A stretch of 64,000 nt of DNA from Escherichia coli (lineage in GTDB: Bacteria; Pseudomonadota; Gammaproteobacteria; Enterobacterales; Enterobacteriaceae), in the NCBI RefSeq assembly GCF_045037415.1, contig NZ_CP173438.1. One strand, written 5' to 3'. Each line of letters starts with the position of its first letter. The stretch's first letter is position 1. Under the pieces are notes generated by a model. That model searched no databases and was not told the origin of the DNA. It was given only the letters and a program-made list of their open reading frames with translations. The translations under genes and the position numbers were made by a program. Below are positions 56,342-57,300 of this stretch, one piece after another.

Positions 56342-56695
56342 ATGAGAAAACAGATACAGGCTCTTGGTCGACTCAAAACAGGTCAGATGAACAAAACAGA
56401 ATCTGCGTATTGCCAGCACCTTGAGCTGCGTAAACGTGCAGGGGAAATCGCCTGGTATCGATTCGAGGGTATCAAGCTACGGTTAGCTGACAACTGCTTC
56501 CTGACTGTAGATTTTGCCGTGATGTTGGCTGACGGGCAGTTGGTGATGGTGGACGTTAAGGGAAGTAAGTCAGTCTTTACTGACGATGCGAGAGTCAAGA
56601 TGAAGGTTGCGGCAGACAGCTATCCGTTTGTCTTTCAGGTTGCTTATCCAAAACCTAAAAAGCTCGGTGGTGGATGGGAGGTTGAGGAACTATGA
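56342..56695 (+). CDS. small phage protein, possible PD-(D/E)XK fold (DUF1064-like, from memory)
   Basis: 117 aa; motif TVDFAVMLADGQLVMVDVKG; family name is a recollection. Confidence 0.45.
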   Translation: MRKQIQALGRLKTGQMNKTESAYCQHLELRKRAGEIAWYRFEGIKLRLADNCFLTVDFAVMLADGQLVMVDVKGSKSVFTDDARVKMKVAADSYPFVFQVAYPKPKKLGGGWEVEEL

Positions 56696-57300
56696 GCGAG
56701 AAGCCCAATGCTGCGGGATTGATTGTATCCGGTGATAAAAACCCGAATTGGAAGGGTGGGAAAATCGAAAAGGTTTGCTCCGTATGTGGCAGGCAATATC
56801 AGGTTAAGCGAGCCAACTCATCTTCAAGGTTCTGCTCACTTCAGTGTGTAGGAATTTCACAGCGAGGCAAGACGGTAAATCGGGAACTAAAGCGAGTATT
56901 AAAAATATGCTGCGTATGCGGATCTTCGTTCTCCGTTTTCTTGAGTCATGAGAAGCGTCATAAATGCTGCTCGAAACAGTGTTCCAACATAATGCGTTCT
57001 TCTCTGATGAAGGGGGAAGGAAATCCAAACTGGTCTGGTGGATTATCGAGATTGCCGTATCCGTGGGATTTCCGAGAAACGAGCAAGAGGGTTATTGAGC
57101 GAGATGGTTTTACTTGTCAGAACCCAGGTTGTGATGGAACAGACAAAAGGCTAACAACTCATCACATCAATTACGACAAGCAAGATTGTCGTCAGGAGAA
57201 CCTTATTTGCCTTTGTTCGAGCTGTAACTCGAAGGCTAATTTCGGTCGGCATAAGTGGCAAAAGTTTTATGAATCACTGATGAAAAATAGATCGGCATGA
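56692..57300 (+). CDS. HNH endonuclease
   Basis: 202 aa; repeated NPNW(K/S)GG modules and C-terminal HNH motif (TCQNPGC...HHINYDKQDCRQENLICLCSSCNSK); overlaps the previous stop. Confidence 0.75.
   Translation: MSEKPNAAGLIVSGDKNPNWKGGKIEKVCSVCGRQYQVKRANSSSRFCSLQCVGISQRGKTVNRELKRVLKICCVCGSSFSVFLSHEKRHKCCSKQCSNIMRSSLMKGEGNPNWSGGLSRLPYPWDFRETSKRVIERDGFTCQNPGCDGTDKRLTTHHINYDKQDCRQENLICLCSSCNSKANFGRHKWQKFYESLMKNRSA

Follow-up and report, generated by a model that had tools for sequence, protein, structure and literature searches.

A candidate homing cassette made of an HNH endonuclease gene and a replacement DUF1064 gene end in phiV10-like prophages of Escherichia coli

In the fungal mitochondrial elements known as mORFs, described in Allomyces macrogynus (atp6) and Glomus (atp6, atp9, cox2 and nad3), a foreign C-terminal gene segment is carried in and the native one is left behind as a relic (PMC3630166). 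The free-standing endonucleases of phage T4 (SegF, SegG and MobE) perform “intronless homing”, in which a distant cut in a neighboring gene leads to co-conversion of the sequence in between (PMC2988022). In ICP1 and other phages, nuclease genes are found at the boundaries of exchanged segments, and the ambiguity between these genes and packaging HNH proteins has been discussed (PMC10448857). Here we describe a predicted HNH endonuclease gene, a 202-codon open reading frame (ORF), in a stretch of 64,000 nucleotides from the Escherichia coli contig NZ_CP173438.1 (assembly GCF_045037415.1), referred to below as the window. The gene overlaps the end of a DUF1064 gene and probably encodes a homing endonuclease of the free-standing type, directed at DUF1064; the mobile unit would be an 806-bp cassette (56495-57300) composed of the 3' half of DUF1064 and the HNH gene.

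The locus shares parts of its layout with each of these systems. As in the fungal mORFs, the clade to which the window gene belongs combines a gene core, a foreign C-terminal segment, an endonuclease ORF and a displaced native relic, with which the ORF is sometimes in phase, and in both cases the inserted tail is much more diverged in DNA than the native one (identity of 64-81% in the fungal mORFs and 57% here). The mORF enzymes are however LAGLIDADG or GIY-YIG proteins in an organelle, whereas the window enzyme is of the HNH type, its host is a temperate phage and its presumed target is the gene of a PD-(D/E)XK nuclease; also unlike in the mORFs, the native relic is gone from the window copy, although it is present in the related loci L016 and L029-L031 (L numbers denote loci used for comparison) and in many database proteins. 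With the T4 free-standing endonucleases the window gene has in common the lack of an evident promoter, the position next to a conserved gene within an established operon, the sporadic occurrence among close relatives and a presumed cut in the neighboring gene, away from the insertion point, that would co-convert a polymorphic stretch. Yet the T4 Seg enzymes are GIY-YIG proteins, the T4 elements lie between genes without a duplicated gene end, and the window gene resides in a phiV10-like podovirus of temperate lifestyle. Like the ICP1-type nuclease genes, the window gene lies at the border of a segment exchanged between phages that are otherwise alike, and its product has the same domain plan, with the nuclease at one terminus and repeats for DNA binding (putative in this protein) at the opposite one, but the ICP1-type families are T5orf172 and AP2-HNH, lie near structural, terminase or replisome genes and have no tie to DUF1064. 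HK97 gp74 and the GVE2 HNH protein are single-domain proteins of about 100 aa, with genes that lie next to terS/terL and are retained throughout their phage group; the window protein differs from this type in its length of 202 aa, its two extra zinc ribbons, its distance of 3 kb from terS and its absence from most relatives.

The bare label “free-standing HNH endonuclease” is ordinary and already stands on some GenBank records. What appears to be undescribed is the fixed tie of this clade to DUF1064, the mORF-like replacement-tail layout in phages and the plan of a double zinc ribbon followed by a McrA-type “HNN” domain; a literature search of incomplete coverage yielded neither a phage homing endonuclease accompanied by a duplicate of its target gene's end nor a link between DUF1064 and HNH proteins. 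The insertion accounts for a sharp mosaic boundary within a conserved phage gene and points to a concrete candidate enzyme-target pair, the HNH protein and DUF1064 alleles without an HNH gene, phiV10 gene 45 being one of these. If the proposed cleavage is true, a compact zinc-ribbon-guided HNH enzyme joins the repertoire of homing endonucleases, and the “replacement gene end” strategy of fungal mitochondria operates in temperate phages of Enterobacteria. The locus is thereby relevant to the ways in which selfish nucleases cause alleles to be replaced and prophages to become mosaic.

Insertion, linkage and relics

Alignment with phage phiV10 shows that the HNH gene is an insertion in a phiV10-like backbone. 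The spacer and the first 51 codons of DUF1064 (56300-56494) are 95.9% identical to phiV10 (95.4% in the coding part); the remaining 201 bp of the gene (56495-56695) are 56.8% identical and contain a 9-nt indel; the following 605 nt, from the DUF1064 stop to the HNH stop (56696-57300), are absent from phiV10; and the downstream backbone (57301-57460) is 98.1% identical. At the right junction, marked here by a slash, phiV10 reads ...TTCTGA/ATCGACG and the window ...GGCATGA/ATCGACG (in the longer form, ...GAGTTCTGA/ATCGACG and ...CGGCATGA/ATCGACG), so that the HNH stop codon is placed exactly at the position of the resident DUF1064 stop. The replacement 3' half is intact and retains the D57...D71-x-K73 catalytic motif, and the D...(D/E)xK positions of DUF1064, a predicted PD-(D/E)XK nuclease (PMC1189080), are invariant in the alignment made in this work. 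A preliminary description of the window, based on the sequence alone, had noted that the HNH gene overlaps a possible small nuclease; this is the DUF1064/phrog_190 gene, the stop of which overlaps the HNH start as ATGA. A tie that the description had missed is that this gene is likely to be both the target and a part of the mobile unit. The proposal to look for the HNH gene at the same site in related phages gave a divided answer: it is found there in the HNH-positive E. coli prophages and in none of 28 phage records with the same flanks (phiV10 and 27 others). At the protein level, no match above 60% identity to the HNH protein was found among 50,697 phage records. One phage, PH444, was considered as a carrier of a different insert at this site on account of an odd three-piece match, and was rejected, as it has only the empty site followed by a longer eae-like gene.

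The HNH gene is carried by 21 of 5,426 complete E. coli genomes, always on the chromosome and with at least 99% identity. The diverged 201-bp 3' half of DUF1064 is found, at 100% identity, in exactly the same 21 genomes and in none besides; DUF1064 sequences related to that of the window occur in 532. The HNH-positive prophages are mosaic and differ in their recombination modules and in the genes 3' of the cassette. In comparisons of the window with five other HNH-positive loci, 0-5 differences fall in the 806-bp cassette and 34-66 in the adjoining 2,755 bp of flank (Fisher p between 0.009 and 5e-8). The cassette diverges by 0-0.6% between prophages that differ by about 2% in their flanks and so forms a low-diversity island in at least five mosaic backbones. 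Single-nucleotide polymorphisms (SNPs) of the flanks reach 56491 on the left and resume at 57343 on the right. This low diversity relative to the flanks indicates that the cassette is younger than its backbones. Presence and absence at one site are thus sporadic among close relatives, the junctions are precise, and the 201-bp gene half constitutes a co-inherited flanking polymorphism of the kind left by co-conversion. The gene lies outside introns and inteins: DUF1064 has its own stop and the HNH gene its own start. An intron- or intein-borne endonuclease was accordingly ruled out, given the own start and stop of the ORF and the lack of a match in an Rfam intron search of 55800-58000.

Traces of the DUF1064 end persist behind the HNH gene in relatives. 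The C-terminus “..GGGW..E.F”, which is the end motif of DUF1064 itself, is found in 39 of 116 full-length HNH homologues, and relics of about 25-35 residues (lengths read by eye from the sequences), such as ...FKVAADIFPFRFIAVKKNPKKSGGGWSTERF before the stop, are found in seven. L029, L030 and L031 carry two DUF1064 tails, one on a complete upstream DUF1064 and the other as an in-frame fusion to the HNH gene; for L029 and L031, local alignment against shuffles gives z=15-17. An in-frame relic follows a premature stop in L016 (...GIMQTRGLL, stop, RKIRLAASLFPFSFVAIKKRPKKDGGGWTTEEF, stop), and in L009, a Klebsiella-type variant, just GAAGAGTTCTAA (EEF and the stop) is left, out of frame. In the window itself the stop codon is all that is left of the native end, so the relics are seen in relatives only; the foreign C-terminal segment that completes the host gene, as in mORFs, is 56495-56695. 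The tails borne by cassettes in unrelated backbones have a common extension, “EVGN(G/A)x”, that the relic tails lack, a sequence pattern consistent with a replacement tail that travels with the HNH gene. Together, relics and replacement tails give the layout of the family: gene core, replacement tail, endonuclease and native tail relic. Among distant relatives (31-55% identity), a crude test by local alignment and shuffles detected no duplicated end of the upstream gene.

The C-terminal extensions of the DUF1064 proteins encoded before HNH genes read “EVGNGA”, “GVGNGS”, “EVGNAA” and “EVGAKADSSGA” (L012 3655-4011, L029 2511-2870, L030 2568-3011 and L016 3709-4044). They overlap the HNH start and are absent from phiV10 and from the relic tails.

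The HNH protein and its relatives

The unbroken ORF, which runs from an ATG to a TGA, is a real gene. Between the window gene and an 88%-identical homologue, the nonsynonymous (dN) and synonymous (dS) divergences are 0.074 and 0.90 (dN/dS ~0.08), which indicates purifying selection. A large protein collection contains 138 homologues at 50-100% identity; the identical protein is found on at least 1,000 E. coli contigs, and its 90%-identity cluster has further members in Salmonella, Klebsiella and Enterobacter. The protein matches PHROG 1271 “HNH endonuclease” (E=3.7e-23) and, more weakly, a dozen other HNH PHROGs. Its Pfam matches are sub-threshold (HNH_3 at 18.0 bits versus a cutoff of 24.8, and zf-HIT), it does not reach a curated Pfam or NCBIfam cutoff for the HNH superfamily, and a sequence search of the PDB gave no match. 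The NCBIfam models for IscB and ZorE are matched far under their cutoffs and at the level of the nuclease domain only, in agreement with the assignment of a ββα/HNH active site.

An AlphaFold2 model (pLDDT 88.4) contains two modules, each a β-hairpin plus helix with four zinc-binding cysteines (Cys4), followed by a C-terminal ββα unit. The Cys4 zinc ribbons are formed by C29/C32/C48/C52 and C73/C76/C93/C97, each with an NPNW-GG motif beside it, and a third zinc site is predicted in the HNH domain (C142/C147/C175/C178). In 43 aligned sequences H158, N170, N179, N183, C142, C147, C175 and C178 are invariant, while H157 and D138 are conserved in at least 90%. The active-site pattern is H157-H158, N170 and N179/N183, with Asn in the last position (the “HNN” variant), and the catalytic and structural roles of these residues are inferred from their positions. 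The fold, the catalytic His, the structural Asn, the final metal ligand and two zinc-binding Cys pairs, by which the ββα-metal HNH superfamily is recognized, are all found in this protein. The domain search proposed in the preliminary description thus leads to PHROG 1271 and to a plan of two Cys4 zinc ribbons followed by a ββα-metal domain of the McrA/GVE2 type. The protein is accordingly predicted to be a nuclease, and its N-terminal ribbons, which are similar to zinc modules of the YacG, FCS and DotN types, would be the DNA-recognition part.

In all six complete E. coli genomes inspected in RefSeq (L001, L003 and L023-L026), the 202-aa ORF (56696-57300 in the window) is left unannotated by PGAP, and a gap of ~660-710 bp separates DUF1064 from the next annotated gene in each. 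In GenBank draft records the identical protein is called “HNH endonuclease”, a name also found on some records of the 90%-identity cluster. Since the ORF is unannotated in these six RefSeq genomes and the family is not recognized by Pfam, such elements are easily missed.

The association with DUF1064 extends well beyond the window. In relatives at 58-88% identity, every contig looked up has a DUF1064/phrog_190 gene of 111-119 aa that ends at the HNH start, with the exception of L030, where the called upstream ORF is of 147 aa, yet ends in a DUF1064 domain. The pairing also occurs in backbones otherwise unlike phiV10 (L012, L016, L020 and L029-L031). In IMG/VR, which was scanned with an alignment of the HNH protein, DUF1064 lies directly upstream in 15 of 15 loci with homologues of at least 59% identity and is adjacent in 0 of 63 loci with relatives at 31-55%. 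This pattern marks the DUF1064-linked proteins as a distinct clade within a larger multi-copy phage HNH family.

The distant relatives (31-55% identity, L048-L110) are common in environmental viral contigs, where they often come as pairs less than 5 kb apart or as multiple genes on one contig (L060, L071, L078, L093, L102, L105 and L109; L051/L061; L092/L096), which suggests a larger multi-copy endonuclease family. The DUF1064 gene adjoining an intact HNH gene is annotated as frameshifted in E. coli HN257 (L023 4652-5004) and is cut to a 34-codon ORF in a metagenomic prophage (L010 3651-3755); in both cases a sequencing error is possible.

Proposed cycle and alternative readings

Homing is supported by presence and absence at one site, the linked diverged tract, the low-diversity island, the association with DUF1064, the relic duplications and the maintenance of the gene, and also by the similar layout of the fungal mORFs and the co-conversion in T4 systems. 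The earlier suggestion of a homing-type or accessory nuclease is thereby strengthened, and the whole looks like a selfish cassette that has spread into a minority of phiV10-like E. coli prophages. A cycle would start when an HNH-positive phage or prophage and an HNH-less relative meet in one cell. With its two zinc ribbons as guides, the nuclease would break the DUF1064 allele of the HNH-less genome within the conserved 3' half of the gene, most likely near the “...VK.KVAAD.YPF...” codons, where the longest relics start. Repair would then copy the cassette from the HNH-positive genome, with left-hand homology supplied by the 5' part of DUF1064 and right-hand homology by either the old DUF1064 tail or the downstream backbone. 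DUF1064 would remain functional because the cassette supplies its own diverged gene end, which would also keep the carrier's own copy from being cut. The native tail, displaced to a position behind the HNH gene and often fused to it in frame, would then decay; in the window lineage it would have decayed wholly, so that the HNH gene now stops at the old DUF1064 stop codon.

By analogy, the clade could be a phage counterpart of the fungal mORFs, a tentative view that we consider somewhat less likely than not to hold in full. Besides introns and inteins, homing endonuclease genes would then have a third mode of residence inside a protein gene, based on a self-immune replacement 3' end, and the use of both halves of the target as arms would allow jumps between unrelated backbones with nothing but DUF1064 in common. 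The in-frame DUF1064 tail might, in addition, let the HNH protein pair with the DUF1064 nuclease, a nickase and a second nuclease together making a double-strand break.

Other readings have to be weighed against homing. The HNH protein might be a working partner of the DUF1064 nuclease in a non-selfish two-gene module for recombination, fork processing or host takeover, exchanged as a mosaic module. The adjacency, invariant down to 58% identity and across unrelated backbones, the coupled translation implied by the ATGA overlap and the strong purifying selection on the HNH gene would all fit such a partnership, and the in-frame DUF1064 tails on many HNH proteins might be a shared interaction motif. 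These tails are however relic-like rather than motif-like: their length, read by eye, ranges from 0 to ~35 aa, the L016 tail is broken by a stop codon and the L009 tail has lost the frame. Most DUF1064 genes moreover do without HNH (532 versus 21 E. coli genomes), as do the phiV10-type phages, intact HNH genes stand beside a damaged DUF1064 (the frameshift in L023 and the truncation in L010), and the cassette is much younger than its flanks; a partnership is therefore judged unlikely. Still less likely is a prophage nuclease for exclusion or defence that degrades incoming related phages to the gain of prophage and host, its own copying being incidental. The gene does lie in a prophage, its HNH domain resembles the effectors ZorE (E=3.5e-10), Cap5 and McrA, and the cutting of HNH-less DUF1064 alleles would shut out competitors, as in the marker exclusion between T4 and T2 (PMC2988022). 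The likeness is however confined to the nuclease domain, while the N-terminus consists of the two Cys4 ribbons; neither an N-terminal reader of modified DNA, as in ZorE/McrA-type systems, nor Zorya, CBASS or other partner genes were found, the latter in the annotated neighborhood. The gene also occupies an early lytic operon, 3' of the replication genes, and not the position of a moron expressed in lysogeny, and defence alone leaves the relic duplications and the linked replacement tail unexplained, whereas insertion by gene conversion accounts for both. An exclusion role is compatible with homing and may be a by-product of it.

The chance that the protein is a packaging helper which acts with terminase, like HK97 gp74, but is encoded at a distance, seems very slight. 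It shares its fold class with the zinc HNH proteins of the GVE2/gp74 type, phages of Brucella, Gordonia and Synechococcus encode remote relatives (~30% identity) beside or within terL, and a cooperative HNH-terminase model has been described (PMC10448857). Close homologues, however, are never found beside terminase but beside DUF1064, and the window gene is separated from terS by 3,093 nt (3.1 kb) and about eight ORFs, which bears out the earlier estimate of some 3 kb. The gene is also absent from phiV10, ZX5, PAS61, TL-2011b and the other phiV10-like records with shared flanks, all deposited as phage genomes, and occurs in just 21 of the 532 E. coli genomes with related DUF1064. The HNH-less phage genomes make it most unlikely that the protein is required for packaging; on these grounds and for want of terminase adjacency the packaging reading was rejected. 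A restriction-modification pair with the MT-A70 methyltransferase was likewise ruled out, in line with the preliminary description, as the methyltransferase gene lies ~6.5 kb away on the opposite strand, in the early-left region.

Prophage setting

The window carries most of a complete phiV10/epsilon15-like prophage of ~39.7 kb, as estimated from the near-identical genome NZ_CP146595.1, in which it is located between guaA and yfgI, with the integrase and the lysis genes at opposite ends. The placement of the HNH gene in the replication region, proposed earlier, agrees with the O-like and P-like genes found upstream (Table 1). The gene has no evident promoter of its own, and a scan for promoters and terminators gave nothing above chance. 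Its ribosome-binding site lies inside the codons of the DUF1064 tail (GGGAGG at 56676-56681 and GAGG at 56684-56687), and its translation is probably coupled to that of DUF1064 via the ATGA overlap.

Table 1. Coordinates of the cassette, its homology arms and neighboring genes in the window
Feature	Position	Strand	Basis or remark
O-like initiator (DnaT/HTH_36)	54627-55442		upstream of the HNH gene
Lambda-P-like loader	55424-56224		upstream of the HNH gene
DUF1064/phrog_190 gene, 117 aa	56342-56695	+	phrog_190 E=3.6e-37, DUF1064 E=1e-4
DUF1064 5' part, codons 1-51; resident backbone, putative left homology arm	56342-56494	+	phiV10 identity; SNPs among HNH-positive prophages reach 56491
Putative cassette-borne replacement 3' half of DUF1064, codons 52-117 and stop	56495-56695	+	phiV10 divergence; linkage in 21 genomes
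HNH endonuclease gene (predicted), 202 aa	56692-57300	+	PHROG/HMM matches, invariant columns, structure model, dN/dS
HNH stop codon, right junction of the insertion	57298-57300	+	phiV10 alignment
Putative right homology arm: intergenic spacer and start of eae-like gene, shortened by a nonsense change at 57413	57301-57460	+	
terS (Terminase_2)	60393-61085		downstream of the HNH gene
terL	61082-62557		downstream of the HNH gene

Downstream of the cassette, the start of the eae-like gene is kept at 57362-57461, where a G-to-T change at 57413 creates a TAA after 17 codons; this position is G in all five other HNH-positive loci compared. A mosaic junction at 57460/57461, beyond which a phrog_4030 gene follows, ends the likeness to the eae-like gene of phiV10. 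Two further features on the minus strand, a Gp49-family gene (62615-63022) and a tRNA-Arg(tct) gene (63221-63297), are located between terL and the portal gene and form a moron-like insert (62615-63297) inside the structural operon of the prophage. In NZ_CP146595.1, a DUF2514 gene in the lysis region (2663108-2663604, outside the window) and a PerC-family regulator (2700005-2700255, corresponding to about 50221-50471 of the window) are annotated as frameshifted, and the otherwise complete prophage may be partly defective. The O-like initiator gene contains tandem repeats with periods of 18, 24 and 12 nt (54932-55063), which code for NGNIPENGNIPKNGMLNDPKNG and are probably the iterons of the replication origin, as in lambda O.
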